Counted from the first letter of the stretch, positions 2,634 to 17,380 are shown. The stretch: DNA of 64,000 nucleotides from an uncultured Planctomycetia bacterium (GCA_964650515.1 CAZYUB010000001.1:1726-65725); one strand, 5' to 3'. Made by a program: numbers and translations. The notes: generated from the letters alone by a model not told the origin.

Positions 2634-2643
2634 AAAATTAAAT

Positions 2644-2848: not shown

Positions 2849-3490
2849 TTATTTAACCGTTTTTTTCCTTAATCCGAGCAGTCCAACAAGGCCTGATCCG
2901 AGTAAAAGAAGGCTTGTCGGCTCGGGAACGGTAAACTGCGTATCGTCAAACCATACTGTGCCGGTGGCGCTTGTGCCGGTCCCGGGAGCAAGCAGGGTCA
3001 GGCGATAGTCGATATACGCCGCGTTGGCAGGCGCTGTCCTCTCGGCCTCCGACCAGGAGCTTAAACTCTGGTACTGCCAATCTCCCGAACCTGAGGTCTG
3101 GTGGACTATGCCTATGCCGCTTCCCAGCTCTTCCTGGCTCGCGTTAAGCCATTTGCACTCCAGGTAGGCCTCTATGTTGCTGAGGTTCTGCCATTTCATC
3201 CATACGCCTCCGTCAACGACATCACCCGGATTTACGGCAAAGACCTGCTTCGCTCCGACCATCTCCCATGAATCGGTCGTAGAACCAGCGGAAATCTTCA
3301 GCGCCTGGCTGCCTCCATGGACTGAATCGGCAGCGTCATAATCGATCGTCCACTGCGGTCCCCAGTTGTAATCAAGCCACGGGCCCTGTCCTGCGCCCTC
3401 AAAGCCGGGATCTCCGATAGCGTTTGCGCACGCAAAAGACGGCGTGGATATGGCCGCCAAAACCGCTAATACTGCAATTAATCCCTTCAT
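2849..3490 (-). CDS. Secreted CBM4_9-like carbohydrate-binding-module protein with PEP-CTERM sorting signal
   Basis: Signal peptide; N(x)GFE motif after the signal, typical of CBM4_9 beta-sandwich starts. C-terminal VPEPTSLLLLGSGLVGLLGLRKK is a PEP motif plus TM helix plus basic tail. Confidence 0.8.
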   Translation of the reverse strand: MKGLIAVLAVLAAISTPSFACANAIGDPGFEGAGQGPWLDYNWGPQWTIDYDAADSVHGGSQALKISAGSTTDSWEMVGAKQVFAVNPGDVVDGGVWMKWQNLSNIEAYLECKWLNASQEELGSGIGIVHQTSGSGDWQYQSLSSWSEAERTAPANAAYIDYRLTLLAPGTGTSATGTVWFDDTQFTVPEPTSLLLLGSGLVGLLGLRKKTVK

Positions 3491-3530
3491 TTGTTCACCC
3501 CCTCTCCTTTTCCTTAGTTTAAAGTCTATT

Positions 3531-3585
3531 TGTAAACGCTTACATATTTACCTAAAAAATAGGGCGCTACACGTAAGCGCTTACA
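3531..3585 (-). promoter_or_regulatory. Twin LacI/cre-type palindromic operators (TGTAAACGCTTACA at 3531..3544; CGTAAGCGCTTACA at 3572..3585)
   Basis: Both are 14-bp near-perfect palindromes with central CG, matching the LacI/CcpA-family operator consensus TGTAAGCGCTTACA. O1 overlaps the predicted TSS and O2 precedes the RBS. Centres are 41 bp apart. Confidence 0.55.
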
Positions 3586-3593
3586 TTACCAGA

Positions 3594-3622
3594 ATAATAC
3601 CACCACCTACATTGATTGTCAA
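3594..3622 (-). promoter_or_regulatory. Sigma70 promoter (TTGACA-N17-TATTAT) of the PEP-CTERM CBM gene 2849..3490
   Basis: Minus-strand TTGACA (plus 3617-3622), 17-nt spacer, TATTAT (plus 3594-3599). Preceded by the AT-rich UP-like element AAAATTAGCAAAATAATAATC shared with other promoters in the island. Confidence 0.55.
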
Positions 3623-3627
3623 GATTA

Positions 3628-3984
3628 TTATTTTGCTAATTTTGAGGAATAAATGAGAGTATTTACGATAGCTATCGCGACAAATAACGTCAATGACCCG
3701 CCGCCGAAGAAGACGATGACCATAGGGTGCGTATCGTCGCGTACCGGAATGAAAAAACACGCCACCGCCGTGACCAATACCGGGACGGACCATATTACCA
3801 TCTGTCGCCCGCCGTATGCGTTTATCTCATACCACAATTCGGGCGACTTAAACGCTTTTGGCAGCCTGAACCCGTACCAGTAATTCATCGGTATCTTGCG
3901 CTTGGCGAGAGGGACTCCCAAAACGATAAACAGCAACCCCATTACCAGGTTTATTGTGATGAATGTCACCTGCGCGTCTGTCAT
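3628..3984 (-). CDS. SdpI/YhfL-family small membrane protein
   Basis: PMNYWYGFRLPKAFKSPELW matches the SdpI-family PxNxxxGxR motif and the protein has 3-4 TM helices. Start set at the internal ATG (3984) with AAGAGG RBS; the track ORF extends to 4032. Confidence 0.5.
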   Translation of the reverse strand: MTDAQVTFITINLVMGLLFIVLGVPLAKRKIPMNYWYGFRLPKAFKSPELWYEINAYGGRQMVIWSVPVLVTAVACFFIPVRDDTHPMVIVFFGGGSLTLFVAIAIVNTLIYSSKLAK

Positions 3985-4030
3985 CTTCTGCCTCTTTTGG
4001 TTAATTATACACCACAGGGCGGCCTCAGTC

Positions 4031-4067
4031 AAAAAAAATAGGGCGAGGATCTCGGGATCCCCGCCCC
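4031..4067 (-). terminator. Intrinsic terminator of gene 4113..4739
   Basis: GC-rich hairpin (gggcgaggatc…gatccccgccc) followed on the minus strand by T8. Confidence 0.65.
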
Positions 4068-4068
4068 T

Positions 4069-4100
4069 CTTCCTCGGGTTAGTTGGGGTGTTTGAGGAAG
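4069..4100 (-). ncRNA. Conserved 3' UTR stem-loop (CTTCCTC-N18-GAGGAAG), copy 2
   Basis: Minus-strand CUUCCUCaaacaccccaacuaacccGAGGAAG sits immediately 3' of the PEP-CTERM gene stop and 5' of the terminator. Confidence 0.5.
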
Positions 4101-4112
4101 ATATTTAGCGCA

Positions 4113-4739
4113 TTATGACCTTTTCCTTAAGCCGAGGAGTCCGACAAGCCCTGAGCCGAGAAGGAGCAGGCTAGCGGGCTCGGGTACAGGCGCCGTATCA
4201 AGGTAAGCATCATCAAAATAAGCGACGCCTGTGCCGCCGTCTACGGTCTGGTTCACGAAGAAAGCCAGGGAAGCGTATGACGCGGTGACCGGTGCGGCTC
4301 CGCTTATATTAAGGGCTGTCCAGTCGTGCGTACCGGTAAGTACCGGGGACGCGCCGGCCGTGCCGACCCATCCGCCCGACGCGTTGAACCAGTCGATCTT
4401 CACGAAGGCCTCTTCGTTGACGAGAGCGTTGGTCTTCGCAAATATGGTCCCGTAATATGTCGTACCGGGCGTAACGGCCGCCATCGTATTGCTGTACATG
4501 AAATAATCGTCGCCGGTGCCGGATGCGCTGTTCGACGTTATCTTCGTCGATTGCGCGCCGGTCCTTGCGGCTTCGGTGCTGCCGTATGTGCCCGTATGCT
4601 GGCTGTTTCCCCAGAGGCCGAGCCACGGGTCCTGGGCCGTATTCTCAAAGCCCGAGTTCGTAAGCATATTAGCGGCTTCCGATATAGAAGCGCTGAACAT
4701 TACTGCTATAGCTAAGGCCAATACTGCGGTAAATTTCAT
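4113..4739 (-). CDS. Secreted CBM4_9-like protein with PEP-CTERM sorting signal
   Basis: Signal peptide, NSGFEN motif, C-terminal VPEPASLLLLGSGLVGLLGLRKRS. Confidence 0.8.
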   Translation of the reverse strand: MKFTAVLALAIAVMFSASISEAANMLTNSGFENTAQDPWLGLWGNSQHTGTYGSTEAARTGAQSTKITSNSASGTGDDYFMYSNTMAAVTPGTTYYGTIFAKTNALVNEEAFVKIDWFNASGGWVGTAGASPVLTGTHDWTALNISGAAPVTASYASLAFFVNQTVDGGTGVAYFDDAYLDTAPVPEPASLLLLGSGLVGLLGLRKRS

Positions 4740-4751
4740 CTCTCTTCTCCT

Positions 4752-5282
4752 TTAGTTTCCTTTTTCTATTGTCACGTCAAAATCGTCAAAACAGGCCTCG
4801 CCTGTTGAACCGGCTATGCCTCTTGCGTATCCGAGCACCCTTGCCTCGATCGCCCCGGCAGGCGCTTTTCCGTTGACTTCCAGCTTCTTCCAGGGTATGG
4901 CGCCTTTCACATGCTCGCTCTCTTTATGCCCCGAACTCAAAGGGCCTGCGCTGCCCCAGAACTCAAGGCGCACAAAGGCCTCGGCACCGTTAGACAGCGA
5001 CTTGGAATCCGGGCTCATCACCCACGCGCTGGCTTTGACTACCTCCCCGGGGCTGACCGGTATCTGCTGCCCATAGCAACCCTGCCCTGCACCTTCGATC
5101 TGCCTGCAAGCCGCCTTCTCCCCGCTGTATTTATACTCGGTTGTTATGATCCCGTTGGTCTCCTGGTCATTCCAGTTGTACCAGCTCTCCTCGTCGGATT
5201 CAAAACCGGGATTGATAACGGTATTGGCATAGCAAACGGAACATATCGACATAGTAATGACCGCCAGGAAAATCTTCTTCAC
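4752..5282 (-). CDS. Secreted CBM4_9-like protein without PEP-CTERM tail
   Basis: GTG start with GGGAGGTG RBS; signal peptide; NPGFESDEESWYNW motif; ends FDDFDVTIEKGN with no PEP anchor. Its stop is 12 nt upstream of the next paralog, indicating an operon. Confidence 0.7.
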   Translation of the reverse strand: MKKIFLAVITMSICSVCYANTVINPGFESDEESWYNWNDQETNGIITTEYKYSGEKAACRQIEGAGQGCYGQQIPVSPGEVVKASAWVMSPDSKSLSNGAEAFVRLEFWGSAGPLSSGHKESEHVKGAIPWKKLEVNGKAPAGAIEARVLGYARGIAGSTGEACFDDFDVTIEKGN

Positions 5283-5320
5283 TTGTTCACCTCCCTCCCT
5301 CTCCCATAAATAAGTTTATC

Positions 5321-6469
5321 TTAACTCAAATGTTTTACTTGTAAAATATACCATCCGTTGCCCATCGCCTCGTCGTCCTTCCTGAGCCATTCCCTGCAAT
5401 CCTGTATCTTCGCCTTGACGAGCCCCGCGACTATAATGTCTTTTGCGCTATATGCCCTGCCTGCGATCTCGTAACAGTTAAGCGCGACCTCCAGGTTCCT
5501 GCGGTCCCCGCTGACGAGCGGAACGCTTAAGCTCCTGACCTTGGACTTATATTCGTCGCCCATGTAAAAACAGATGCCGTAATACGACTTCCTGTCGTCA
5601 GCATCCTCGATACTTTTGATGAAGAGCAGTATCGCGTCCCTTTCGAGGTTACTATAAGGCACGAGGAAACCGGCTTTCTTCATCTGCTGGGACCTGGCCC
5701 GGTATTCGTTTATCCTCTTCTCAGCCGACAGACGTGTCTGCGGGCTTTGGGCGAAACGCGACGCCAGGTCGTAGCAGAGCGGAGCGATGCGGAAATAACC
5801 GAATTCGTCGTCCTCGAACCTTCCTATCTGCGCCCTTGCGGCATAGCAGTCCCCGAGATCTATATATCTTCTCGCGCAGGCCTCTTTCTCTTCGGCCGTC
5901 CCGAGCCCCGCTATTATCCCCGCGATAAGCTCGGAATCCTTTTTATTCGCGGGTTTTACTATCCCGCCGTTCGCGAATTCCTTTTTCATCTCGGCAAGGC
6001 CCATGGACGGGACGGAATTATCGCCATGGTCCATCTTTATTATCTTCTCCGCCCTCCTCTTTACCGTGTCTATGTACGCCATTTGGCTGGCCGCCAACTT
6101 TCCGTACGAAGGGTCTATGTCGATAGCCATCGAGAATTCCGCATCGGCGTGGTCGATCATGCTGTTCTCGAGGCAAAATATCCCAAGCTTATAATGGTCC
6201 TGGGCGCTGTTCGGGGATATCTCCTTCACCTTCCCGGCGTATACCTCCTCCGGGCCCGGCGCGGACTCGTCCTCCTTCCTCACGATCGAGGCGACGAGGC
6301 CCTTCTTTATCTTCTCCGTCGCCCCCGAAGCGCTCCTGAACTTCACGGCCGTATCCGTCTCATCCAGGACTTCTCCCTGCATTATCCCGCCGCTCCTCAA
6401 CAGGACCGTATCGGCATATGAGGGGCTTGATAAGGACAATATGACGAACACGATGATGTGCCTGTTCAT
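5321..6469 (-). CDS. Secreted hypothetical protein, 382 aa
   Basis: Signal peptide (…SSPSYA/DT). No family recognised. Translationally coupled to the GspK-like gene (1-nt overlap at 6469). Confidence 0.5.
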   Translation of the reverse strand: MNRHIIVFVILSLSSPSYADTVLLRSGGIMQGEVLDETDTAVKFRSASGATEKIKKGLVASIVRKEDESAPGPEEVYAGKVKEISPNSAQDHYKLGIFCLENSMIDHADAEFSMAIDIDPSYGKLAASQMAYIDTVKRRAEKIIKMDHGDNSVPSMGLAEMKKEFANGGIVKPANKKDSELIAGIIAGLGTAEEKEACARRYIDLGDCYAARAQIGRFEDDEFGYFRIAPLCYDLASRFAQSPQTRLSAEKRINEYRARSQQMKKAGFLVPYSNLERDAILLFIKSIEDADDRKSYYGICFYMGDEYKSKVRSLSVPLVSGDRRNLEVALNCYEIAGRAYSAKDIIVAGLVKAKIQDCREWLRKDDEAMGNGWYILQVKHLS

Positions 6470-8718
6470 CAGATATCCCCTTCCCTGTAATAGGATATAC
6501 GCACGTCGGGCAGATACGTTATCGTCACATCCTCAAGGGCGATCGTCTCGCTCAGGTACGGCTCGGTCCCGAGGCCGGAAGACGGTGTATCAAGAGTCGT
6601 AAAGTTCGCCCTGAACTGTATGCTCGGCGATGCCGGCGAAATGACCGCGCTTCCCGGAAGGATACCGGGAGACGGCAGGGTCCATGAGGCGCCTCCGTCA
6701 ACGCTTGTCTGGAAATACACGATCTCCGAAGCCGGATTCGCTCCCTGGCTGAGCGTCACGGTAGCCCCGATCGTCCCCCACCTGACATCCCCTTCCGGGC
6801 TCACGAACGGTTTTGATTCGAAATAACCTCCGTCCTGCGGGATGACCCTTATGCCGTCGGCCCAGCACATCGGCGTAGGCGTCATCATAGCGCCGTGCGC
6901 CTGCCAACCGACCTGCCCCGATGTATGGTTGCTCGTATAAGTATTATGGATATACCTCTGCAGCTCGGGCGGCCCGCCCTGCCTATAAGCGTAAAAATAG
7001 TGGTCGGTATCGGATAAGGTGACCGTTATCGAGGTGTTCGTGACATAATATCCGTTGCTGAGCCATCCGGTCATAAGGTTGCCCGGCCCGACCTGCGTCT
7101 GCATCTCCGCCCATGTCGTGTCGGCGGGAGGGTTGCCGTATTCCTGCTTCATCCTTACCGTATCGTCGCTGCCGAGCATGTGCCTGCTTAAGTTCATCAT
7201 CACGTCCCACTGCTTGTATTCATAACCCGTCACCTGCATCTTCCTGTATGGGGATATGCCGTCGGATACCGTCGCCCTGAAGGCAAACCTGTCCCAATCC
7301 AGTTCCGGCGGCAATGATGGCTGCTGCCCGAGGACCGTTATCGGGGCGTTGTAAGGCGCGACCATCTGCGGTATGAATACGAGCTCGTTCTTGCCGTCGG
7401 AATTTTCGTCCTTTATCGTGTTAGAGTCCGTCCGGGGGAACCAGAAATACGAAAGCCTGTTGCTCATCGACGCTTCCATCCAGCGCCCTTCGATATAGAA
7501 CATGGACGCGTCCCCGGAAAATGTGTCGTCCATATTGTCCCAGAAACCGTTCTTTACCGAGTCCGGGACGGTCCTGTAATCCGACCCGTGGTTCCAGCTG
7601 TTCACGGAATTTATCGTCTCGACCGGGCAGGAGTCGAGCGTGTTCGTCTTAAATGCGGCCGGGGCGGTGTCCCCGTCGCTGCCCTGAAAATGCTCTTTTG
7701 CGGTCTGGTTCAATATGCCGTAGATCCTTACGAGCGATACGGCCTTCTTTTTCGCGTTATCGGCAAGTCCTGCCGACTCTATCAGGTACCACCCTCCGGG
7801 ATGGAAGCAGAAGTCGGTCGTATAGCCCGCCGGCTTTACCCGGTTCGGGTTCGCGTTGTCTTTTATCTTCTGCCTGTCGTCGGCGTCCAGCGGAGGGGTA
7901 ACCGGTACGGTATCGATGAATCCCTCGAATTGGCGCCATCCGGTAAAAGGTGACGAGGCCCTGTACGCAAGGATCGCGCCGGCCAATGATTCGGCCTTCT
8001 CCCCGGTAATGACACCGGACAATACGGCCCTTAAGACCTGCGCGCTTGCCGTATTTATGTTAACCGGTGATTTCGGCATATAAGGTTCTCCGCGGACAGA
8101 GTCGTCGCTATTGGCGTCCACATAACCTACAACGGTTATATAATCTTTTATCGCGTCGAATTTTGTCCTGTCGATGGATGAATACACCATTATCTCTTCC
8201 GCGGTAATATATCCCGCGGCCGGGCGGTTGTCGGCTATCGACTGCCCGTCGCTCTCGGAAAGCGGCGATCCGACGGCCACGGCCAGGTTGCCCAGTATAT
8301 CCCTGATCCTCGCGTTGGGGTCGTTTATATTTATGCGGCCCGCGGAATCCGATATCCTGACCGCGAATGACGCCGGGACCCTTTCTCCGGACAGTATGCC
8401 GCTGGCCCCGTTTCCGATGACGCCGTCATATGCATCCAGTGAAGGATTGGCCGCGCCGGGATAAGCCCATTCGTCCAAAGGCATTGCATTGAAATCCGCG
8501 CCGGCGATCTCCCTCATGCGCGCTATTGCAAGCGCTATGCCGGCTTGCGCGGCATATATAGCTTTGGTATTGTCCCGGAAATTAGAGGCAAACTTGTATT
8601 CAGACACCGATAACATCGCAAATGACGTCGCTATAGCCGCCAACAGGGCCAACACGCAGACCGAAACGAGCAAGGCTGCACCGCGTTTCATCCCTTTTCT
8701 CACCAGGCCCATTTTCAT
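6469..8718 (-). CDS. Giant GspK/PilX-like minor pseudopilin (749 aa) with a large unknown C-terminal extension
   Basis: N-terminus KRGAALLVSVCVLALLAAIATSF…AAQAGIALA resembles the GspK hydrophobic segment and following helix. The internal PVNINTASAQVLRAVLSGV is the GspK helix-hairpin-helix NINTA motif. About 400 further residues have no recognisable family. Confidence 0.55.
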   Translation of the reverse strand: MKMGLVRKGMKRGAALLVSVCVLALLAAIATSFAMLSVSEYKFASNFRDNTKAIYAAQAGIALAIARMREIAGADFNAMPLDEWAYPGAANPSLDAYDGVIGNGASGILSGERVPASFAVRISDSAGRININDPNARIRDILGNLAVAVGSPLSESDGQSIADNRPAAGYITAEEIMVYSSIDRTKFDAIKDYITVVGYVDANSDDSVRGEPYMPKSPVNINTASAQVLRAVLSGVITGEKAESLAGAILAYRASSPFTGWRQFEGFIDTVPVTPPLDADDRQKIKDNANPNRVKPAGYTTDFCFHPGGWYLIESAGLADNAKKKAVSLVRIYGILNQTAKEHFQGSDGDTAPAAFKTNTLDSCPVETINSVNSWNHGSDYRTVPDSVKNGFWDNMDDTFSGDASMFYIEGRWMEASMSNRLSYFWFPRTDSNTIKDENSDGKNELVFIPQMVAPYNAPITVLGQQPSLPPELDWDRFAFRATVSDGISPYRKMQVTGYEYKQWDVMMNLSRHMLGSDDTVRMKQEYGNPPADTTWAEMQTQVGPGNLMTGWLSNGYYVTNTSITVTLSDTDHYFYAYRQGGPPELQRYIHNTYTSNHTSGQVGWQAHGAMMTPTPMCWADGIRVIPQDGGYFESKPFVSPEGDVRWGTIGATVTLSQGANPASEIVYFQTSVDGGASWTLPSPGILPGSAVISPASPSIQFRANFTTLDTPSSGLGTEPYLSETIALEDVTITYLPDVRISYYREGDI

Positions 8719-8761
8719 CGGATAAATAACTTTCGTTATTCTAAATTGTTTTATCTTTAAG

Positions 8762-8795
8762 GCAAAAACTGGGCTGCCCTAAAAAACGGGCAGCC
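8762..8795 (-). terminator. Intrinsic terminator of gene 8808..10508
   Basis: Hairpin gggctgccc…gggcagcc followed on the minus strand by AGTTTTTGCC. Confidence 0.65.
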
Positions 8796-8807
8796 GTTAT
8801 CCTCTTA

Positions 8808-10508
8808 TTACGGGGCTTTTTCTAATGTAAGCGGATTAAACTTGTTCTTGGCGAATATGTACCACGAGGCCACGGACACCGTCCCCATATCCGGCCTGCT
8901 CCAGTTATAACCGCCTTCCCTGTTTGCCGTATAAGGTATCGTACGGCCCTTCGCCCCCTTGATATTCCTGTCGACGAGGAAGGCGTCCATCTGGTTGGCG
9001 TAGAAATACCCCCTCTCCCTGTCGCCTTCGGTAATATACGCGCACGCTATATGGCCGGTGCCGTCGAGCCATATATTGTTTACGTTTATATCGGCATGGT
9101 CGAAGAAGCCCATGACTTCCTTTCCGTTCACGTTCAGCGTCTTGCGGTACCTGAGGTCATATTCCGGGATATTCAGCAGGGCCGCCGATCCCCTGCCGTA
9201 TGCGAGGACCCTCCAGGTATAGTTATCCAGCGGAAGCGTGTTGCCTTTCAGCACCGAGTCGAGCCATACGCGTATCTTATCCGCATAGGCGTCCTCCTTG
9301 CAAAGTTTCAACGCGGCATAGCAGTCGATGTTGCCTTCGGGATGCCCGCCGTCCTCGTGGAGCTTCTTGTCCCCGCTCCTCCATCCGTGCTGTATATAAC
9401 CGCCCTTCCCTCCCGGATCGTCCTTATACCATGATATCAGCAGGTCTTTCAGCATCCCCGTGATATCCCTGTATCTCTCCGCCCCGTATTCCTTCTCATA
9501 ATATTTATACGCGATAAGCAGCCATGCCATGTCGCCCATCCAGCGGTCCGCCTTGCCGGGGTTATGGTATGCAGAGAGGTTCCCCTCGTTCCTGAGGTTG
9601 ACGTACTGGAAGAAACCTCTTGCCTCGCCCTTATAAAAGAAGTTCTGGTATGACGGGCACCTGTTCTTTACGACCGTGGACTCCGCGAAGAAATCGAGTA
9701 TACGTTCGGCTCTTTCTTTTTCTCCCTTCACGATGAACGCCATTGCCACAAGGGCGTTGTTGAAAGTATGGGCCTGGTTGTCTTCGGCCGTGGGCAGAAG
9801 TTGTTTTTCCGGAGAAAAATTATCCTGGCACAATTTGAGCCATTCCAATACGAGCGGGTCCTCGGGTATAAGCTCCGCGGCCCTTCTCTGTTTGAAACCT
9901 ATGCCTTTAAGCTCCCTGTCCGGGTCGAGCACCGGGCCCACGACCGAGAATGAGGCCGGCAGCCCCGGCTTGTCCAACCCTATCTCGTCCAGGTCCACCG
10001 TGCCTTTTCCTTTTCCGGAGAAAGCGATCTCGAGGTTGGCGAGTTTATCGAACTTATCATCCCCGCCCCACCCGTATTCAAGGTTATTCCTGTATACCAC
10101 GACCTGCGTCCAATCCGTGTATTTGCCCCTCAAAGGGAATTTCCTGAAGAATACGGAACCGTCCGCGTCGACCAGCTTGATCTCCATGTCCGAAGACGAA
10201 TCGGACTTGATCAGGAACGTCAAAGGGACATCCTCCGGCATCTTCTCCGTCATCTTCCTGCGCATAAGCACCCAGCCGTAATCGCCCCTGAGCTCATATA
10301 CCGCCCGGATACCGTCGTCCGGCTTCTCCGGTATGGGGGATATCTCTATCGTGCTCTTACCGTCCATATCGGCCTTCCATTGGCTAATGTCGTCCCAGCT
10401 CGCCTTAATGGGGGGTTGGGGCTGCTGCCCGGGTTTTTGCGCTTGCTCATACTCCTTGCAGCCGGATATTAACAGCAGGAACGCCGCCAGGCAGACAACC
10501 TTTTTCAT
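8808..10508 (-). CDS. Lipoprotein: N-terminal CBM/CIA30-like beta-sandwich plus C-terminal (alpha/alpha)6 six-hairpin glycosidase-like domain
   Basis: Lipobox LLISGC. C-terminal half (…NTFNNALVAMAFIV…WYIFAKNKFNP) is homologous to the N-terminal half of the 14086..15843 protein, and its N-terminal beta-rich domain to the other's C-terminus. Fold assignment is by pattern only. Confidence 0.45.
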   Translation of the reverse strand: MKKVVCLAAFLLLISGCKEYEQAQKPGQQPQPPIKASWDDISQWKADMDGKSTIEISPIPEKPDDGIRAVYELRGDYGWVLMRRKMTEKMPEDVPLTFLIKSDSSSDMEIKLVDADGSVFFRKFPLRGKYTDWTQVVVYRNNLEYGWGGDDKFDKLANLEIAFSGKGKGTVDLDEIGLDKPGLPASFSVVGPVLDPDRELKGIGFKQRRAAELIPEDPLVLEWLKLCQDNFSPEKQLLPTAEDNQAHTFNNALVAMAFIVKGEKERAERILDFFAESTVVKNRCPSYQNFFYKGEARGFFQYVNLRNEGNLSAYHNPGKADRWMGDMAWLLIAYKYYEKEYGAERYRDITGMLKDLLISWYKDDPGGKGGYIQHGWRSGDKKLHEDGGHPEGNIDCYAALKLCKEDAYADKIRVWLDSVLKGNTLPLDNYTWRVLAYGRGSAALLNIPEYDLRYRKTLNVNGKEVMGFFDHADINVNNIWLDGTGHIACAYITEGDRERGYFYANQMDAFLVDRNIKGAKGRTIPYTANREGGYNWSRPDMGTVSVASWYIFAKNKFNPLTLEKAP

Positions 10509-10620
10509 CGATATCTCCTTCAGTATATGAGTTTCTTATTACTAAATTGTTTTACCAGTTAATAAAGATACCACCGGAATGCGCTTTTGTCAAATAAATA
10601 TTATGCGGAGGGAATAGGCA

Positions 10621-10667: not shown

Positions 10668-10702
10668 CCTTTTTCGTCCCCCTACTTCTTAAGCTATACT
10701 GC

Positions 10703-11335: not shown

Positions 11336-11349
11336 TTCACCCCTTTCTT

Positions 11350-11980
11350 TTACTTTTTCCTCTTGTTAAACAACCCTACTCCCAACAATCCACTTCCCAG
11401 CAATAACATACTGGCGGGTTCCGGAACGGGGGCGGATTCAACGATGAGGTCATCAAAGATTCCCCCTTCCGTCACCACTGCCAGTACCAACATTGTTGAC
11501 TTCCCAAACCATGGTCGCCTTGACTATGTCGGATCCGTAGCTTGACGGGGTCACCAAAGCTGTCATATCATTCCAAACATTGTCCGCAAGCTCATTGCCC
11601 GTAAGGTTTCCCGTGGTCCACGTTCCCACTATGGAATCATCCGAACGCTTGAATTCCACCCTTAATGAAGCGAATGTGCCGTTCCTGAGGGATTCATTCC
11701 CGGCAGCATCATCAAACAAATAACCGCCGACTCTATACACCGAACCGGGATCCGTTATCGTGACATCCTGCCAGCCCGATGTCGCCCACCAACCTGCGGC
11801 GGAATAGCTGCCTGAATTTCCCCATGCATTTATAGTCGCATTTGTGCCGTTCCATTGGCTCCATCCGGTAAAATCCCCGCTTTCGAACCCGGAGTTGGCC
11901 AGAAGATTGGCGTGCGCCATTGAATATGAGGATAGCATCATTGCGAGAGCGATTACTAATGCGGCTTTTCTCTTCATCAT
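11350..11980 (-). pseudogene. PEP-CTERM CBM4_9-like paralog interrupted by a +1 frameshift in a G5 run (~11460)
   Basis: ORF 11453..11980 ends …GDGRGNL*. The next frame continues GIFDDLIVESAPVPEPASMLLLGSGLLGVGLFNKRKK*, the expected PEP-CTERM tail, ending at 11350. The intact paralog 12261..12932 reads GDGRGIFDDLMV… through the same point. Confidence 0.6.
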
Positions 11981-11995
11981 TCCTCAACCCCCTTT

Positions 11996-12012
11996 ATCGA
12001 AACGTGTTTATT
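11996..12012 (-). promoter_or_regulatory. ACACGTGT-type box (ATCGAAACGTGTTTATT) just upstream of the RBS of gene 11980
   Basis: Degenerate copy of the TTCGACACGTGTTTAA box, 17 nt before the start codon. Confidence 0.4.
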
Positions 12013-12084
12013 AATCGGACATAATAAACTGTTTTTGTCATTCGGTTGATTTTGTATTTCAGAAGTTGCTGCCGTAGACCATTA

Positions 12085-12139
12085 TTCGACACGTGTTTAA
12101 GAGTGCCTATAATATACATTAAGAAAGTAAAAGTGTCAA
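12085..12139 (-). promoter_or_regulatory. Sigma70 promoter (TTGACA-N17-TATATT) with a TTAAACACGTGTCGAA operator box at +4..+20
   Basis: Minus-strand -35 is plus 12134-12139 and -10 is plus 12111-12116. The imperfect palindrome around CACGTG at 12085..12100 lies immediately downstream. It carries the same UP-like upstream element as the other island promoters. Confidence 0.5.
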
Positions 12140-12185
12140 GAGAATTAAATTGCTTATTTATAGTTCTTTATTGCTCTATATGAGA

Positions 12186-12220
12186 ACAAAAAATGCGGGA
12201 GGGCGTTCCTGCCCTCCCGC
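12186..12220 (-). terminator. Intrinsic terminator of gene 12261..12932
   Basis: Hairpin gcgggagggc…gccctcccgc followed on the minus strand by ATTTTTTGTT. Confidence 0.7.
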
Positions 12221-12226
12221 ACGCTT

Positions 12227-12255
12227 CTCCCTCGGGTTATTGGGGGTTGAGGAAG
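12227..12255 (-). ncRNA. Conserved 3' UTR stem-loop (CTTCCTC-N15-GAGGGAG), copy 3
   Basis: Minus-strand CUUCCUCaacccccaauaacccGAGGGAG occupies the same position (stop, stem-loop, terminator) as copies 1 and 2. Confidence 0.5.
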
Positions 12256-12260
12256 AATAT

Positions 12261-12887
12261 CTACTTCCTGGAGCTCTTCTTTCCTATTCCGAAAATACCG
12301 ATCAGGCCTGAGCCGAGAAGCAATAAGCTTGCCGGTTCCGGTATCGGCTGTGTATCTACCATCAGGTCGTCGAATATACCGCGGCCGTCTCCAGAACCGC
12401 TGTTATTGACTTCCCATACCAGAGTTACATGGTCGATACCGACACCATAGCTCGACGGCGTAACAATGGCTGTCTTGTCGTTCCATACGTTGTCTGTCAG
12501 GTTGGCGCCGGTCAAATTGCCGGTCGTCCAGGTCCCAACGATGTTGTTGGCGGCATTCTTGAATTCTGCCCTTATCGAGGCATACCCGCCGTTCCTGAGC
12601 GATTCGTTTCCCGCGACGTCATCATAGATGTAGCCGCCGATCCTCACCGACGCATTTGCGTCCGTGATAGCTGCGTCCTGCCATGCTGATGTCGCCCACC
12701 AACCTGCTGCGGAATAATTGCCCGTACGGCCCCAGCTGTTCATTGCCGTATTGGCGCTGTTCCACTGTCCCCAGTTACTGAAACTCCCCGTCTCAAATCC
12801 AGCGTTGCTGAGAAGATTAGCGGCATCCGCGTGAACCGGAATTACGAGAGCTGCTGCAAACAGAAGCACTGCAAACAACTTTCCCAT
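12261..12887 (-). CDS. Secreted CBM4_9-like protein with PEP-CTERM sorting signal
   Basis: Start placed at the internal ATG with AAAGGAGGA RBS (the track ORF extends to 12932). Signal peptide, NLLSNAGFETGSFSNW motif, C-terminal PIPEPASLLLLGSGLIGIFGIGKKSSRK. Confidence 0.8.
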   Translation of the reverse strand: MGKLFAVLLFAAALVIPVHADAANLLSNAGFETGSFSNWGQWNSANTAMNSWGRTGNYSAAGWWATSAWQDAAITDANASVRIGGYIYDDVAGNESLRNGGYASIRAEFKNAANNIVGTWTTGNLTGANLTDNVWNDKTAIVTPSSYGVGIDHVTLVWEVNNSGSGDGRGIFDDLMVDTQPIPEPASLLLLGSGLIGIFGIGKKSSRK

Positions 12888-12908
12888 AACTTTTCCTCCT
12901 TTCTTCAA

Positions 12909-12923
12909 TTCGACACGTGTTGA
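12909..12923 (-). promoter_or_regulatory. ACACGTGTCGAA box, RBS-proximal copy
   Basis: Minus-strand AACACGTGTCGAA about 25 nt upstream of the start codon of gene 12261..12887. Confidence 0.45.
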
Positions 12924-12977
12924 GTTATTCATTACAATAATCCCTTGCCGGAACTAATAGGGATTTATTTAGAACGA

Positions 12978-13032
12978 TTCGACACGTGTTTAATTGTTAA
13001 TTTATTATGCATTAAGTAAGTGTTCATGTCAA
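12978..13032 (-). promoter_or_regulatory. Sigma70 promoter (TTGACA-N18-ATAATA) with a TTAAACACGTGTCGAA box at +3..+18
   Basis: The -35 is plus 13027-13032, the -10 is plus 13003-13008 and the box is 12978..12993. A hairpin TCCCT…AGGGA at 12941-12970 lies between the two box copies. Confidence 0.5.
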
Positions 13033-13063
13033 GATTAATATATTGCTTTTTTTTAGGACTAAT

Positions 13064-14086
13064 TCAGGAGGGCTTGACGGACTCTCTGCGAATGTATTCC
13101 GGAGTGAAAATTACCGTATCGTTCTCTATCTTTTTTCCCGATACTATATCCAATAACATCTGCGCGGCGGTCTTGCCAATCTCGACCAGCGGAAGCCTCA
13201 TGGAACTCAATGTCGGAGATCCCGGCGGAAAAGGGAACATGTCGTTGAAACCTATTACCGAAATATGCTCGGGGACCGAAAGGCCGTCGTCACGTATCCT
13301 TCTTATCGCGGCAAGCGCCATGACGTCGTCCGAAGCCACTATGCCGGTGATCCTCGGCTCCTGCTTCAACAGGATACCGGTAGCTTCGTATGCTTTTTCG
13401 TAGATAAACAGCCCTTCGGCCACAAGGTTTTCGTCGAATCCCGCGCCCGCTTCGGATAACGCCTTTTTGTATCCCGCAAGCCTGTCCTGGTCGAGCTGGA
13501 ACCTTAACGCGCCGCTGAGGAACGCTATCCTTTTATGGCCGGTGTCGAGCAATTCCTTCGTCGCCCTGAAAAGGCCTTCCTTGTTATCTATCAGGACCTT
13601 GGGTATCTTCGCCTCCTTTATGTACCTGTTCACGAGCACTACCGGGAACTTCTTTTCGAAAAGCGTCATCACATCCTTCTCGAGGGCTTCTTCGACGAGT
13701 ATGCACATGCCGTCGACCCTTTTTTCTTCGAAGGCCTTCATGTAATACGGGGAAAGCGGTTCTTCTTTCGGCTTTATCGCACGGGTCAACTGGAAATAAT
13801 AACCGTTCTTCTCCAGCACTCCGGCAATGCCGCTGACTACGTGGCTGAAATACGAATAATATATGTCCTCGAAATCTTTTACCACTACGGCGATGTTGAA
13901 TGTCTTCCTGCTGACAAGGCTGCGGGCTATCACGTTAGGCGTGAAATCAAGGTCCGCGACCACCTTGCTGACACGCTCCTGCGTCTTCTTGCCCACCTTC
14001 TGGAGGTCCTTACCGTTTATGACCCTCGAGACGGTGCTTATGGATACTTTCGCTTTTTTGGCTATGTCTTTATATGTATATGCCAT
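13064..14086 (-). CDS. LacI-family transcriptional regulator
   Basis: N-terminal HTH (YKDIAKKAKVSISTVSRVINGK) and periplasmic-binding-fold effector domain. Its ATG overlaps the TAA of the upstream glycosidase-like gene. Confidence 0.85.
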   Translation of the reverse strand: MAYTYKDIAKKAKVSISTVSRVINGKDLQKVGKKTQERVSKVVADLDFTPNVIARSLVSRKTFNIAVVVKDFEDIYYSYFSHVVSGIAGVLEKNGYYFQLTRAIKPKEEPLSPYYMKAFEEKRVDGMCILVEEALEKDVMTLFEKKFPVVLVNRYIKEAKIPKVLIDNKEGLFRATKELLDTGHKRIAFLSGALRFQLDQDRLAGYKKALSEAGAGFDENLVAEGLFIYEKAYEATGILLKQEPRITGIVASDDVMALAAIRRIRDDGLSVPEHISVIGFNDMFPFPPGSPTLSSMRLPLVEIGKTAAQMLLDIVSGKKIENDTVIFTPEYIRRESVKPS

Positions 14087-15843
14087 TAATTAAGGTATAT
14101 CCTGTGCAGGTTGACCGCGGAATTCCCGCTGCAATCTTCCACCCTCACCTCAAACGTGATCTTCCTCACGCCTTCCCTGTCGAATAAGCCGTTCCCGTAA
14201 TTCTGCAATTCCGGGCTTCGCCTGAACCCGTCCTTCAGGTCCAGGGAAAAATGTTCGAGCTCCCCGCCATAAAGGTATATCGGTATGCTTTCAAAGGGCT
14301 CGCCTTCCCTGTCATACGCTTTAACCTTCATGGACATTTTCTGCGCGCTGCTGGAAAGCTCCAGGTTCAATTTACCGTATTTGCCCCAGTCCTGCGGACA
14401 GAGAAAAGGACGGCTGACCGTACCCCAACAGGCCTTCGCCGACTCCTCCGGCTCGATGGTTATCTTCATCGTATTTACGAGTTTGCCCGTTGATGACGCC
14501 GCAGGCGCCAATTTCCTTGATATCCTGCAGTGCCCCGCCGAGACCATCTCCGACGGATATGCCGTCTCGAACTTTATGCTGCCGTATGTGAAATCGTCTA
14601 TTACGGGGACGAACTGGAAAGCGGGCTTATAATCGATGCTGTCTACTATCTTATTCGCTCGCTCCTCATCCTGCCCCATCGAAAAGGGGTTGAAGTCCTC
14701 CTTCGCGAATATATACCAGCAGGTGCTCGATATGCAGAGCGGCCGGTCCTGCATTACCCAGCTGCCGTAGGCGGTCGTACCCTCATTCGTCGCGTACGGC
14801 AATGCCGAAGCGTTCTTATGGACCGAACTGGCCGTAAGCGCTTTGTCCAGCTCCGACAGGAAATGCGCGCTCTCCTCCTTCCTGCCGGCCCTGTCGAATG
14901 CGAGGGCCATCTGGGCCGTGCCTTCCAGCCATATGGAATCCTTGTCCGGATAATGTGACTTTTCGTAGGTGGAACCGAAATCGAAACCCTCTATCTCGAC
15001 CCCGTTGACCTTATACATCTTCTTCGTCAAACTCTTGTCTATCGCGAAATCGAGCGTGGGCCCGTAAGCGCTCCCGAGTGCCAAGACCGCCCAGCTCGAC
15101 TGGTCGGTCGCGAAATTAGGGTTGTCCCTGCCCATGTTGAACCTGTTCTGCTCTTTGTTCCAGGCGGCGTTCTCCATCCAGAATTTTATCTCTTTCGCGA
15201 CGCCGAGGCACCGCATATCGCCGGTAAGGACGCCGAGGTCCCTGAACGCGGCATAAGAGTCGAGGTTATGTTCGACCGATATCCATGTCATCGGCTCCCC
15301 GTTGCCGTAATACCCGCCGATAACGCCACCCTCTATCGACTGAAGCGACATCAGCCATTCCACGAGCGTCTCCGCGAGATCCGAATACCTCGTATCTTTC
15401 GAGACATACGTATAATGGTTGATCGCTATGAGCATCCACGCGTTCGGGCCCGCGGCCCAGGTTTCTCCCCAGCGCCCGTCCTTGCGGTAGGCGTCGCTGA
15501 ACCCTATGAATTTTCCGTATTTCTTTATCTCCTTGCGGTAAGTGCCGTCAAAGAAATCGAGCACCTGCCTTGCCTTTTTCAGGTCACCGCGGGAAGTAAA
15601 GGCGATAACGGCAAGGGCCTGGTCGTAGGTAAAACAATCCGTCCCGCCTTCATAGCTCGGAAGGAGCCCCTCAGTAAAGAAGATCAAGCGACGGTTCGAT
15701 TCCTGCTGCGCGACAAGCCACCTGTATGCCTTGTCCACGTTATCATCCCGAGCGGGGCCGCCGGGGTCCTGCCCCCATCCTGAGGGCCCGGCGCAGAGCG
15801 CGCACAGCAGCACCGACGCCAAAAATGCGCGTATCTTATTCAT
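14086..15843 (-). CDS. Secreted (alpha/alpha)6 six-hairpin glycosidase-like protein with a C-terminal CBM/CIA30-like beta-sandwich
   Basis: Signal peptide from the internal ATG (the track ORF extends to 15897). DQALAVIAFTSRGDLKKARQVLDFF… and CWYIFAKEDFNPF are shared with the 8808..10508 protein, with the domain order swapped. Confidence 0.45.
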   Translation of the reverse strand: MNKIRAFLASVLLCALCAGPSGWGQDPGGPARDDNVDKAYRWLVAQQESNRRLIFFTEGLLPSYEGGTDCFTYDQALAVIAFTSRGDLKKARQVLDFFDGTYRKEIKKYGKFIGFSDAYRKDGRWGETWAAGPNAWMLIAINHYTYVSKDTRYSDLAETLVEWLMSLQSIEGGVIGGYYGNGEPMTWISVEHNLDSYAAFRDLGVLTGDMRCLGVAKEIKFWMENAAWNKEQNRFNMGRDNPNFATDQSSWAVLALGSAYGPTLDFAIDKSLTKKMYKVNGVEIEGFDFGSTYEKSHYPDKDSIWLEGTAQMALAFDRAGRKEESAHFLSELDKALTASSVHKNASALPYATNEGTTAYGSWVMQDRPLCISSTCWYIFAKEDFNPFSMGQDEERANKIVDSIDYKPAFQFVPVIDDFTYGSIKFETAYPSEMVSAGHCRISRKLAPAASSTGKLVNTMKITIEPEESAKACWGTVSRPFLCPQDWGKYGKLNLELSSSAQKMSMKVKAYDREGEPFESIPIYLYGGELEHFSLDLKDGFRRSPELQNYGNGLFDREGVRKITFEVRVEDCSGNSAVNLHRIYLN

Positions 15844-16495
15844 TAGACAATATGAAATCATCCAGGTATACGGTCGCTCCCGGGCCGTTGCCCACATCCG
15901 CTCCGAAGGCTATGCCGATATTGTCGAGCGACTTTACGTCTATGCCTGATTTGCGCAGCTCGGCTACGGATATCGTTATCTTCTTCCATTCCTTCGTGGC
16001 CGATTCAACCGATATCTTTGCCTGCGGCATATAGCTCGGCGCATGGCTGTCCCTGAGGACTATTTCCATGTTCTCTCCGCCGTTCTCACCCTTTACCCAG
16101 AATTCTATGCTCTTGAAACCGGACACATCCTTGCTCTTGACCTTCTTCGGGACGGGGACAGCATCGGTGACCTGGCCCATGTCTATAGAAAAACTACCCC
16201 ACGTCTCCGACTTCTTGCTTCCGAGGGCGTTGACGAGGCGGAACGACTGCTTGCCGCTATGGACGTTCTTCATGTCATACCCGGGTACGTTCGGGGAATA
16301 GTACCAGCTGAACGGCGTGTTCTTGTCTTCCCAGTTGGGTTCCAGAGACCCGTATACCCCGACCTCGCCCCCGAGATTGTTCGGATGGCCTTCAAAATCC
16401 GCTATGACGGTAATGCTTTCTTCGGAAAACGATTGCCCGGGAACAAAAAATAACACGGCGGCTATTGCCGCTATAAGAAATATCTGTCCTTTCAT
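15836..16495 (-). CDS. Secreted CBM11/CIA30-like beta-sandwich protein
   Basis: Signal peptide. Residues around EFWVKGENGGENMEIVLRD and ATVYLDDFIL suggest a carbohydrate-binding-like beta-sandwich fold. No PEP-CTERM tail. Confidence 0.45.
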   Translation of the reverse strand: MKGQIFLIAAIAAVLFFVPGQSFSEESITVIADFEGHPNNLGGEVGVYGSLEPNWEDKNTPFSWYYSPNVPGYDMKNVHSGKQSFRLVNALGSKKSETWGSFSIDMGQVTDAVPVPKKVKSKDVSGFKSIEFWVKGENGGENMEIVLRDSHAPSYMPQAKISVESATKEWKKITISVAELRKSGIDVKSLDNIGIAFGADVGNGPGATVYLDDFILSNE

Positions 16496-16515
16496 GCCAG
16501 CCTCCTTTTGCCAGT

Positions 16516-16576
16516 ATTATAACTCATTGACCGTTGCGTGTAAACAACGGGGGCCCGCAATCATCCGGGCCCCCGC
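16516..16576 (-). promoter_or_regulatory. Terminator hairpin (16549..16575) overlapping a sigma70 promoter TTTACA-N17-TATAAT for the 16495 operon
   Basis: Hairpin gggggcccg…cgggccccc. On the minus strand, TTTACA (plus 16539-16544), 17-nt spacer, TATAAT (plus 16516-16521), then the AAAAGGAGG RBS. Confidence 0.5.
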
Positions 16577-16587
16577 TATGTTAACTA

Positions 16588-17241
16588 TCAGCTCTTCTTC
16601 CTTCTCCCAAGACCGATAAGCCCAACCAGCCCTGTGCCGAGCAAGAGCATGCTTGCCGGTTCGGGGACGGGCGCAAACGACATATCATCCACCCACAACG
16701 TGCTGTTAGGTGAATACGCACCGCTTGTCGTAAGTGCGACAACGGCGGATACCTTAGCCGTCCCTGCGGGGGCGGCCGCGGCCGCGACAGAAATAGGGTG
16801 CCAGGTGTCTGCTGTTGCCGAGTTGTCGAATAAGGCACTCTCATCTACGCGGATAACGTTGCCAAGCGAGTTATACCATTTTACCTGCAGCTTGGCCGAG
16901 CTGCCGTCCTTAAGCGCATCAGCGGAATTCCACAGGAAATTACCATTCAGTAAGTAGGGGGCACTGAAATCGATCCCTGTAAAGTCCTCGTTGAAATACG
17001 CATAATCGGTGCCGCTTCCGCCCCAGATGACCACCTTCGCCGCCTTGGCGCCGCTCATCGCAACCGAAGAATCATAGAATGAGTCGCCGTTAGCGCCGCC
17101 GCTCCATGTCCACGGGCCATCCTTTATAACAATAGCCGATCCGCCGTTCTCGAAACCCGGATCGCTCAGGAGGTTGGCAGATGCCTGGGATGAAAAAACA
17201 CCGAATACCGCTATCATCAGTATTACCCTGAATATCTTCAT
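16588..17241 (-). CDS. Secreted CBM4_9-like protein with PEP-CTERM sorting signal
   Basis: Start at the internal ATG with GGAGGTG RBS. Signal peptide, NLLSDPGFENGG motif, C-terminal APVPEPASMLLLGTGLVGLIGLGRRKKS. Confidence 0.8.
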   Translation of the reverse strand: MKIFRVILMIAVFGVFSSQASANLLSDPGFENGGSAIVIKDGPWTWSGGANGDSFYDSSVAMSGAKAAKVVIWGGSGTDYAYFNEDFTGIDFSAPYLLNGNFLWNSADALKDGSSAKLQVKWYNSLGNVIRVDESALFDNSATADTWHPISVAAAAAPAGTAKVSAVVALTTSGAYSPNSTLWVDDMSFAPVPEPASMLLLGTGLVGLIGLGRRKKS

Positions 17242-17380
17242 TATTTCACCTCCTTTCATTATTAAGTTAAACGTTTTCCTTTCAAACCTTAAAAAAAGGA
17301 AAACGATTTCCTTTACTTGGAAAGTCTATCATATCCCAGAATAAAGTCAAGATTATTAAATTGTTATTTTGTAGTAATAA

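Follow-up and report, generated by a model that had tools for sequence, protein, structure and literature searches.

A 64-kb window (64,000 nucleotides of one strand, from an uncultured Planctomycetia bacterium; GCA_964650515.1, CAZYUB010000001.1:1726-65725) carries seven paralogous genes, designated here P1–P7, for small proteins in which a predicted signal peptide precedes a beta-sandwich resembling carbohydrate-binding modules (CBM) of families 4, 16 and 22. Six of the seven, one of them only after repair of a frameshift, close in a PEP-CTERM sorting tail, and an exosortase gene is present in the same locus. Pairs of operator-like palindromes stand in front of P1, P5, P6 and P7, a feature that goes beyond what the initial annotation of this DNA had reported. 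We tentatively read P1–P7, with a confidence that stops a little short of even, as sugar-inducible, exosortase-sorted surface lectins, by which substrate polysaccharide would be held for secreted proteins under the same regulation. Among bacteria that produce exopolysaccharide (EPS) and form biofilms or flocs, PEP-CTERM/exosortase systems are widespread, yet next to nothing is known of what their cargo does biochemically.

The names P1–P7 follow ascending window coordinates. All seven open reading frames (ORFs) named in the initial annotation were recovered on the minus strand (Table 1), and their products, measured at 176–217 aa, agree with the size of about 175–225 aa given there. The opening N-L-L-x-N-(G/P)-GFE ascribed to all of them holds as far as the FE strand is concerned, which is conserved in every member, but P1 (NAIGDPGFE), P3 (NTVINPGFE) and P4 (NLLVNGDFE) deviate from it. 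The general layout is a signal peptide, N-x-x-x-(N/D)-x-(G/D)-FE and a beta-sandwich closing in FDD; the N-termini are basic, then hydrophobic, and end in A-x-A just ahead of the conserved strand. A six-frame regular-expression scan of the window returned exactly seven N-terminal motifs of the form N..(N/D/S).(G/D)FE and exactly six C-terminal tails composed of PEP, a hydrophobic stretch and basic residues, all of them within P1–P7. A profile hidden Markov model (HMM) restricted to the domain, for which the central part of an alignment of 67 family sequences was taken without signal peptide or tail, likewise matched P1–P7 and no other ORF of the window (E = 1e-21 to 1e-52).

Pairwise identity among the seven proteins is 25–36%, the exception being P5 and P6 (63%), and such low values indicate old paralogues rather than recent copies. 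Three residues are invariant, F31, E32 and D176 in P2 numbering. Comparison with the orthologues on a contig that is 94%-related to the window (L001) gave dN/dS ratios of 0.08–0.15 (0.10 for P1), somewhat more relaxed than the 0.04–0.08 of neighbouring genes. P1–P7 are real genes under purifying selection. P3 lies 12 nt upstream of P2, and P4 lies 14 nt downstream of P5, with which it is probably co-transcribed. P3 ends right after the last strand of the sandwich; its orthologues in L001 and in a second contig, L003, are also tail-less, and each is located directly upstream of a P2 orthologue.

P5 required separate treatment. As read, its ORF stops at 11453 after 175 aa and the PEP-CTERM tail VPEPASMLLLGSGLLGVGLFNKRKK is found in another frame, the shift being due to one extra G in a G-run at about 11462-11466 (GGAAGGGGGAATC, as against GGAAGGGGAATC in the L001 orthologue). 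Since the latter is intact (210 aa) and the repaired P5 displays a dN/dS of 0.13, the extra nucleotide is either an assembly error or a very recent change. The same ratio, together with the intact downstream frame, led us to reject the possibility that P5 is a decaying pseudogene.

The tails of P1, P2, P4, P6 and P7 were recognised by both PEP-CTERM models, scoring 25.3–31.2 bits with PF07589 (cut-off 20.7) and 18.3–25.1 bits with TIGR02595 (cut-off 16); for P1 the values were 28.8 and 24.2 bits. Thus five of the six tails claimed in the initial annotation are intact as read, whereas that of P5 is reached only after deletion of one G. None of the named NCBIfam PEP-CTERM families searched (NF033554, NF038120, NF038125, NF038126, NF038129, NF041538 and NF041927; cut-offs 50–125) was reached by any of the seven proteins, the best scores being 35.1 bits for floc_PepA (cut-off 80), 32.8 for THxN (85), 31.1 for QFxxD (80) and 25.8 for FxDxF (50), and the matches mostly covered the tail. 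As judged by these models, the proteins are bona fide PEP-CTERM cargo by their tails but belong to no named PEP-CTERM family. In the structural model of P2 described below, the tail forms a helix (188–207), and PEP follows the last strand after only about four residues.

The presumed processing enzyme of the six tails is the exosortase encoded at 18013-18849. Its best subtype match is XrtA (TIGR03109; 173 bits, under the cut-off of 208). The exosortase and EpsI genes overlap each other and are situated next to P7. The initial annotation had named EpsI and a TPR lipoprotein as the only other exosortase-related products of the window, which is incorrect in view of the exosortase itself and of a chain-length determinant of the type found in XrtA systems. 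The exosortase/EPS system thus appears XrtA-like, albeit below both subtype cut-offs (TIGR03109 and TIGR03007). From what is known of other exosortase systems, the tails would be expected to be cleaved at PEP and the proteins sorted by the exosortase.

At the level of the Pfam family CBM_4_9 (PF02018), to which the initial annotation had likened the proteins, none of the seven reached the gathering cut-off of 25.9 bits: P1, P2 and P3 scored 16.0, 19.2 and 24.8 bits, respectively, and P4–P7 gave no match. The wider family fared differently, with 25 of its 67 members matching PF02018 at E ≤ 0.01 (best 3.7e-9). The 67-member profile, searched against the PDB, retrieved CBM16-1 of Caldanaerobius polysaccharolyticus ManA (2zex; E = 3.2e-11, profile positions 24–179) as well as CBM22 (4xup, 1.7e-10; 2w5f, 2.7e-9), CBM4 (1gui, 3.2e-5), CBM70 (4d0q) and CBM61 (2xom). 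A single-sequence AlphaFold run on mature P2 was unusable (pLDDT 46.6), and the model discussed here is therefore the AlphaFold2 (AF2) model based on the family alignment (pLDDT 90.2, pTM 0.80). It consists of a beta-sandwich (39–181) preceded by a helical signal segment (3–16), and Foldseek ranked CBM16 first among its structural relatives (E = 3.6e-9), in line with the beta-sandwich originally proposed. On the strength of profile homology and predicted fold, the module of P1–P7 is assigned to the CBM4/9/16/22 (PF02018-type) superfamily.

Whether the putative binding face is retained was judged from an HMM alignment to CBM16-1. We take Trp-20, Trp-125, Gln-81 and Gln-121 to be the relevant residues of that protein, the PDB title 'Q121E' having served to fix the numbering; its ligand residues were reportedly described by Bae et al. 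in 2008. Trp occupies the Trp-20 column in P3, P5 and P6; in P7, P2 and P1 a Trp is displaced from it by no more than two residues, and in P4 the column holds Glu, the nearest Trp being four residues off. An aromatic residue is found near the Trp-125 position in P2–P6. Glycan binding by P1–P7, probably with differing specificities, is plausible on these grounds.

A consensus scan located strong promoter-like sites upstream of P1, P5, P6 and P7, and strong terminator-like hairpins after P1, P2, P6 and the gene for a 566-aa lipoprotein. Two palindromes centred on CG, resembling LacI operators, accompany each of the four promoters; the pairs fall into three sequence classes (motifs A, B and C; Table 1). 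The first site of each pair begins 9–14 nt past the -10 box and the second stands just ahead of the ribosome-binding site (RBS); the sites are positioned 22–111 nt upstream of the start codons. P6 has another possible ATG at 12932, and an RBS and an operator-like site separate that codon from the start at 12887. Palindromes of 14–18 nt with a central CG make up motifs B and C. Motif A has seven matches in the window against 0.99 expected; one of those beyond the two pairs, the fifth motif-A-like hit (20972-20984), was rejected as an operator, being inside the coding sequence (RRKFKRVE) of a PilZ-like ORF. A third, weaker copy of motif C (16424-16437) falls within the first part of the CBM30-like coding sequence, near the start of the operon that contains the only LacI gene of the window (13064-14086).

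Table 1. Positions of the genes and regulatory elements of the window, counted from its first nucleotide.
Feature	Coordinates	Strand	Description
P1	2849-3490	minus	213 aa; signal peptide, CBM4/16/22-like beta-sandwich and PEP-CTERM tail; domain HMM E = 5.9e-46
P2	4113-4739	minus	208 aa; architecture as P1; member used for the structure model
P3	4752-5282	minus	176 aa; signal peptide and beta-sandwich, without PEP-CTERM tail
P4	10703-11335	minus	210 aa; architecture as P1
P5	11350-11980	minus	209 aa once the frame is repaired; architecture as P1, frameshifted as read
P6	12261-12887	minus	208 aa; architecture as P1
P7	16588-17241	minus	217 aa; architecture as P1; adjoins EpsI and exosortase
Exosortase, EpsH type	18013-18849	minus	eight transmembrane segments; PF09721 201 bits; TIGR02602 148.5 bits (cut-off 105.55)
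EpsI (DUF3485)	17381-18031	minus	PF11984 102.6 bits; TIGR02914 80.5 bits (cut-off 42.8)
XrtA-system-type chain-length determinant	35104-36735		TIGR03007 275.1 bits, just below the cut-off of 278.85
LacI-family regulator	13064-14086	minus	PF00356, PF13377, PF00532; last gene of the unit CBM30-like / 584-603-aa / LacI
Conserved lipoprotein	8808-10508	minus	566 aa; lipobox LISGC; no family match
Paralogue of the 566-aa lipoprotein	14086-15897	minus	584 aa from the likely start, the one called in L001 (603 aa in the long form)
Small secreted beta-sandwich protein, CBM30/CBM11-like	15836-16495	minus	219 aa; no PEP-CTERM tail; PF21582 29.9 bits (cut-off 27)
Motif B (TGTAAGCGCTTACA type), P1	3572-3585 and 3531-3544	minus	between promoter-like 3622-3594 and the RBS
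Motif C (GGAAAACGTTTTCC type), P7	17298-17311 and 17266-17279	minus	downstream of promoter-like 17350-17323
Motif A (AACACGTGTCGAA type), P5(-P4)	12085-12097 and 11996-12008	minus	downstream of promoter-like 12139-12111
Motif A (AACACGTGTCGAA type), P6	12978-12990 and 12909-12921	minus	downstream of promoter-like 13032-13004

The pairs are conserved beyond the window. Pairs A and B are kept in L001 and in another contig, L007, and pair C in L001, while the spacers have diverged, as in phylogenetic footprints. In another phylum, a metagenome-assembled genome (MAG) of Candidatus Auribacterota (L009) also has a motif-C pair ahead of its P7-like gene. The relatives encoded by L004, L005 and L006 have pairs of TGCCCACGTGGGCA-type sites with LacI genes alongside, and the 14-mer TGAAACCGTTTTCA is found upstream of the Mariniblastus member, the background of such 14-mers being 0.55 per kb in the sequences compared. 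A metagenomic scan for the motif-B pair yielded 43 loci, in five of which, unrelated to the present one, the pair stands directly beside a LacI gene. As a mark of a regulon specific to this family the motif-B pair had to be rejected, given that family members are carried by two of the 43 loci, both from the sample of L001.

A fourth motif, D (TAAAACAATTTAGTAATAA; TAAAACAATTTAG(T/A)AATAA), is not palindromic. It occurs in the window at 8735-8753 and 10536-10554 (two matches against 0.04 expected), ahead of the genes for a 749-aa GspK-like protein and the 566-aa lipoprotein, respectively. L001 has it at 7598-7609 and 9404-9415, P3 and the 566-aa gene being the two genes that it precedes there, and L003 has it at 9365-9376, ahead of the P3-like gene. 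Apart from these motifs, a perfect 14-nt palindrome, GTTCCACGTGGAAC, is present at 53962-53975 and 55977-55990, each copy near the start of one of two tandem minus-strand genes for proteins of about 555 aa (54001-55671 and 55966-57630).

Read along the minus strand, the locus comprises genes for a membrane protein, the TPR lipoprotein, the exosortase, EpsI and P7; the CBM30-like 219-aa protein, the 584/603-aa protein, the LacI regulator, P6, P5 and P4; the 566-aa lipoprotein, the 749-aa GspK/PilX-like protein, a 382-aa protein, P3 and P2; and an SdpI-like protein, P1, tRNA-Val, thrS and infC. The tRNA-Val(GAC) gene (2643-2719, minus strand) and the long ThrRS ORF (915-2687) share nucleotides at the 5' end of the latter, so the true thrS start must be internal, in agreement with the 565–578 aa called in L001 and L002. 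The latter is a 166-kb contig of a Candidatus Omnitrophota MAG, and in both contigs the gene order is kept. Near-identical contigs are also present in JGI sample 3300029288. The LacI regulator, 98% identical in L001, is the most conserved gene of the locus.

The genes for the 382-aa protein and for the 749-aa protein, the latter resembling minor pseudopilins of the GspK/PilX type, span 5321-8718, between the 566-aa gene and P3. They are missing from the otherwise syntenic L001 and L002 and present in L060, a contig from the same sample as L001; judging from these contigs, the segment is a strain-level insertion or deletion. In L001 a promoter and motif D stand ahead of the P3-P2 pair, which in the window is cut off from them by this segment.

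The gene products at 8808-10508 and 14086-15897 (566 and 584/603 aa), previously labelled glycosidase-like, form a paralogous pair (26% identity over 351 aa), and the label could not be upheld, as neither matched any Pfam, NCBIfam or PDB family. Across searches of Pfam and NCBIfam, phmmer and profile searches of the PDB and a Pfam search with 25 relatives, the sole match was a marginal one to CBM11 in the N-terminal part (E = 0.15). The family, with a core of about 350 aa, is 50–60% identical across Omnitrophota, Verrucomicrobiota, Planctomycetota, Elusimicrobiota, KSB1, Bacteroidota and a Vibrio, and in Bacteroidota and KSB1 it is fused to sorting domains of the type IX secretion system. It represents a widespread, uncharacterised kind of secreted protein, possibly an enzyme, and we flag it as a candidate partner of P1–P7. 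The CBM30-like 219-aa protein was considered as a homologue of P1–P7 and rejected, no relationship being detectable (hhalign probability 1.9%). Other tail-less beta-sandwich companions are encoded in L004 (8522-9802), L005 (8556-9779) and L006 (7817-9061 and 9250-9852).

The presence of a LacI regulator and an EPS toolkit, noted in the initial annotation, was confirmed. The EPS cluster, of the Wzx/Wzy type, lies at higher window coordinates and is transcribed ahead of the exosortase operon on the minus strand. It encodes a WecA-like glycosyltransferase, several GT1/GT4 glycosyltransferases, a UDP-GlcNAc 2-epimerase, a GH20-like protein, Wzy, Wzx, the chain-length determinant (Wzz), a P-loop protein, a secretin and a GGDEF-GAF-REC protein. 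The GH20-like protein (25343-27007, minus strand), with a GH20b domain and a partial match to the catalytic domain, sits among the glycosyltransferases. The REC-GAF-GGDEF protein (38345-40387, minus strand) is encoded at the far end of the cluster, and the small PilZ-like ORF (RRKFKRV...NLSEGG; about 20537-21002, minus strand) directly upstream of the membrane protein, TPR lipoprotein, exosortase and EpsI genes; together, the two hint at control of the EPS/exosortase part of the locus by cyclic di-GMP.

As for the clustering of the seven genes around an exosortase, the exosortase/EpsI pair does adjoin P7, but the linkage is not kept outside close relatives. In L003 the P3-P2 pair is followed by a pseudopilin gene, a 59%-identical orthologue of the 566-aa gene and genes for giant secreted proteins, with no exosortase within 10 kb. 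In L004, L005 and L006 a single PEP-CTERM member stands beside a LacI gene and a gene for a two-domain tail-less relative (408–427 aa) that matches the family HMM.

Searches of a 5.8-billion-protein set with P2 retrieved 92 relatives, nearly all of 190–230 aa and with a PEP-CTERM tail. Candidatus Omnitrophota MAGs are the main source of the named ones, which go by no other annotation than 'PEP-CTERM sorting domain-containing protein'. Automatic annotation already gives both PF02018 and PF07589 on some relatives. An 83%-identical relative (P0004) was deposited under a Dehalococcoidales MAG, probably because an Omnitrophota contig was binned wrongly. Mariniblastus (Planctomycetota) and Candidatus Auribacterota MAGs, too, encode relatives of nearly full length. 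A scan of genome contigs keyed on the PEP-CTERM peptide gave 36 loci, most of which matched only in the tail or the C-terminal part, and six of which (L006–L010 and L015; Omnitrophota, Mariniblastus, Auribacterota and UBP3 MAGs) contain near-full-length relatives. Orthologues of single paralogues could be told apart in these and other contigs: P1 (85%) and P5 (77%) in L007, P2 (65%) and P3 (44%) in L003, and a P7-like protein (36%) in Auribacterota. Therefore, the duplications are old and the copies have been separately maintained.

The domain itself is very common. In a library of 1.8 billion proteins it was detected in 92,445 representatives at E ≤ 1e-3 and in 14,722 at E ≤ 1e-10, and the top-scoring carriers are giant proteins with 4–18 tandem copies. 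Searches of the literature returned no description of PEP-CTERM cargo of the CBM or lectin type, or of PEP-CTERM proteins in Omnitrophota.

According to the reading that we favour, P1–P7 would be exported by the Sec route, with the signal peptide removed at A-x-A just before the N-L-L-x-N-x-G-F-E strand. In the six tailed members the PEP-CTERM helix would keep the protein in the inner membrane until exosortase/EpsI cleaves at PEP, after which, by analogy with other exosortase systems, the module would be passed to the cell envelope or matrix. With a linker of about four residues it would be attached directly to its acceptor; P3, which has no tail, would be released. The genes form at least four transcription units, the promoter-like sites of P1, P5(+P4), P6 and P7 each being followed by an operator-like pair, and P3-P2 (in L001) and the 566-aa gene have motif D in common. 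Repression through the LacI-type operators would be relieved by sugar, the repressors presumably being LacI-family proteins like the one encoded in the window. Different carbohydrates would in this way switch on lectins of differing specificity, and polysaccharide would be held at the cell surface. Carbohydrate binding, surface display and the alternatives of glycan capture and floc cross-linking had all been put forward in the initial annotation; they are inferred from sequence here as they were there.

Substrate capture is favoured for three reasons. LacI-type control and the linkage to the 566-aa family recur in places where no exosortase is linked; a single self-made polymer hardly accounts for seven old specificities, set behind different switches; and the module composed of P3, P2 and the 566-aa gene is conserved (L003). 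Several observations weigh on the other side. None of the seven proteins attains the PF02018 cut-off, P1 and P7 are without a second aromatic residue in the Trp-125 region, and the equivalents of the cleft residues Gln-81 and Gln-121 vary among the paralogues. The short linker before the PEP motif is ill-suited to a far-reaching surface lectin, and we know of no system in which the route of PEP-CTERM proteins across the outer membrane is understood. Motif A is an imperfect palindrome, and cognate regulators of motifs A, B and D were not found in the window, nor was a transporter for captured sugars identified there. The supposed partner 'enzymes', the 566-aa and 603-aa proteins, belong to no recognisable catalytic family, having no Pfam, NCBIfam or PDB relative even at the profile level.

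A further-reaching possibility, which we regard as somewhat unlikely, is that the modules constitute a programmable lectin coat, each having its own glycan specificity and its own LacI-type switch, so that the surface would be re-tooled to the polysaccharides or partner-cell glycans that the cell senses. If this were true, P1–P7 would be the first PEP-CTERM cargo whose molecular activity can be deduced, and they would offer a direct, non-covalent account of how exosortase substrates tie polysaccharide to cells, the step left open for Zoogloea, Aquincola and Nostoc.

The main competing explanation is that the cell's own EPS, the product of the neighbouring Wzx/Wzy cluster, is kept attached to the cell, or a floc matrix formed, by modules that bind this polysaccharide or are linked to it through the exosortase. 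P1–P7 abut a locus that is complete in its exosortase and EPS genes: the exosortase, EpsI, the TPR lipoprotein, the XrtA-type determinant (275.1 bits), Wzx, Wzy, glycosyltransferases, a secretin, a GGDEF protein and the PilZ-like ORF, and a linker of about four residues suits direct attachment to a polymer. Matches to floc_PepA, albeit weak, reach beyond the tail in P4 (35 bits) and P2 (23.5 bits). Anchoring of EPS is what PepA-type PEP-CTERM proteins achieve in Zoogloea and Aquincola, and apparently also what exosortase substrates achieve in Nostoc. Overexpression of PepA turns soluble into bound EPS by a mechanism that has not been explained (PMC9850573), and a cyanoexosortase mutant of Nostoc makes polysaccharide but does not retain it near the filaments (PMC12188702). 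However, the floc_PepA scores are far under the 80-bit cut-off, and known PepA control proceeds via RpoN and PrsK/PrsR, not LacI (PMC9850573). Moreover, outside close relatives the family members adjoin LacI genes, other CBM-like genes, the 566-aa family or giant secreted proteins rather than exosortase and EPS genes, and it is not easy to see why one self-made polymer should call for seven specificities (25–36% identity) under different sugar-type operators. We consider retention of the cell's own EPS rather unlikely.

It is also conceivable, though improbable in our judgement, that the beta-sandwich serves as the scaffold of an abundant exosortase-sorted envelope layer with a structural, protective or protein-binding function, the likeness to CBMs being ancestral only. 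The invariant residues, among which W39 of P2 is counted here beside F31, E32 and D176, lie in the first and last strands, as would be expected of positions important for the fold or for a structural metal rather than of a ligand cleft (CBM4 and CBM22 modules have calcium sites), and the cleft positions differ between paralogues; strong RBSs, dedicated promoters and strong terminators would befit abundant proteins. On the other hand, the conserved LacI-type operators and the repeated adjacency to LacI genes point to carbohydrate signals, the closest structural neighbours are all true glycan binders, and most paralogues keep, at the platform position of CBM16 or close to it, a Trp exposed to solvent.

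Recognition of host, prey or syntrophic-partner glycans by adhesins, with different paralogues covering different partners, has in its favour that the same fold occurs in receptor-binding parts of phages (8zdo gp20, E = 1e-10; the tailspike proteins CBA120 TSP4 and K2-2 TSP; the phi812 baseplate), that the best-scoring relatives are giant proteins with up to 18 tandem domains, as is typical of adhesins, that pseudopilin-like genes recur as neighbours and that many Omnitrophota are thought to be small, partner-dependent cells, but it is quite improbable, as the window displays neither a sign of a host-dependent lifestyle nor partner-specific evidence, the short linker gives little reach, and LacI-type sugar control with linked conserved secreted proteins suits nutrition better.

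Several known systems come close to P1–P7. With the modules of CBM16, CBM22 and CBM4 (PF02018; CBM16-1 of ManA, 2ZEX) they share the predicted beta-sandwich, the N-x-x-x-N-P-G-F-E start, the x-x-(F/V)-D-D end, a profile alignment over the whole module and a Trp at or near the ligand platform. They differ in standing alone rather than as appendages of glycoside hydrolases, in having a PEP-CTERM tail, in their low identity (23–25%), in remaining under the PF02018 cut-off and in not conserving the polar cleft residues. Giant tandem-repeat proteins contain the same domain in 4–18 copies, whereas here there is one domain per gene, each with its own promoter and its own sorting tail.

The surface glycan-binding proteins (SGBPs) of Bacteroidota (SusE/F, SGBP-B) provide a functional analogy only. 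They too are non-catalytic, CBM-like and envelope-anchored, occur in several diverged copies and are co-regulated with secreted carbohydrate-active proteins under sugar-responsive control. However, they possess an N-terminal lipid anchor and operate with SusC/SusD, whereas the P1–P7 proteins are single-domain and carry a C-terminal PEP-CTERM tail; no lipobox Cys was found at their cleavage sites and no SusC/SusD among the window proteins scanned. The regulators here are of the LacI type, and the phylum is Omnitrophota, of the PVC group (Planctomycetes, Verrucomicrobia and Chlamydiae). The locus offers a first glimpse of possible polysaccharide handling at the surface of uncultured Omnitrophota and related PVC bacteria, with an anchoring unlike that of the lipoprotein SGBPs.

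With PEP-CTERM/exosortase systems at EPS loci, among them that of the flocculation protein PepA in Zoogloea and Aquincola, the locus shares the sorting signal, cargo proteins of about 200 aa in multiple paralogues and the neighbourhood of exosortase, EpsI, TPR lipoprotein, chain-length determinant and glycosyltransferases. It differs from them in a cargo with a recognisable lectin-type fold (PepA, NF033554, is far below cut-off), in control that is apparently exerted through LacI-type operators instead of RpoN/PrsKR, and in an exosortase below the XrtA cut-off (173 against 208 bits). The mechanism linking PEP-CTERM proteins to bound EPS was left for further study in the work on PepA (PMC9850573), and small single-domain cargo proteins, which ought to be readily expressed, with a confidently predicted lectin fold and conserved operators of the sugar-repressor type would be useful in this respect. 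The components of the P1–P7 locus are ordinary ones; it is their combination that gives a testable activity to an otherwise opaque class of exosortase substrates.

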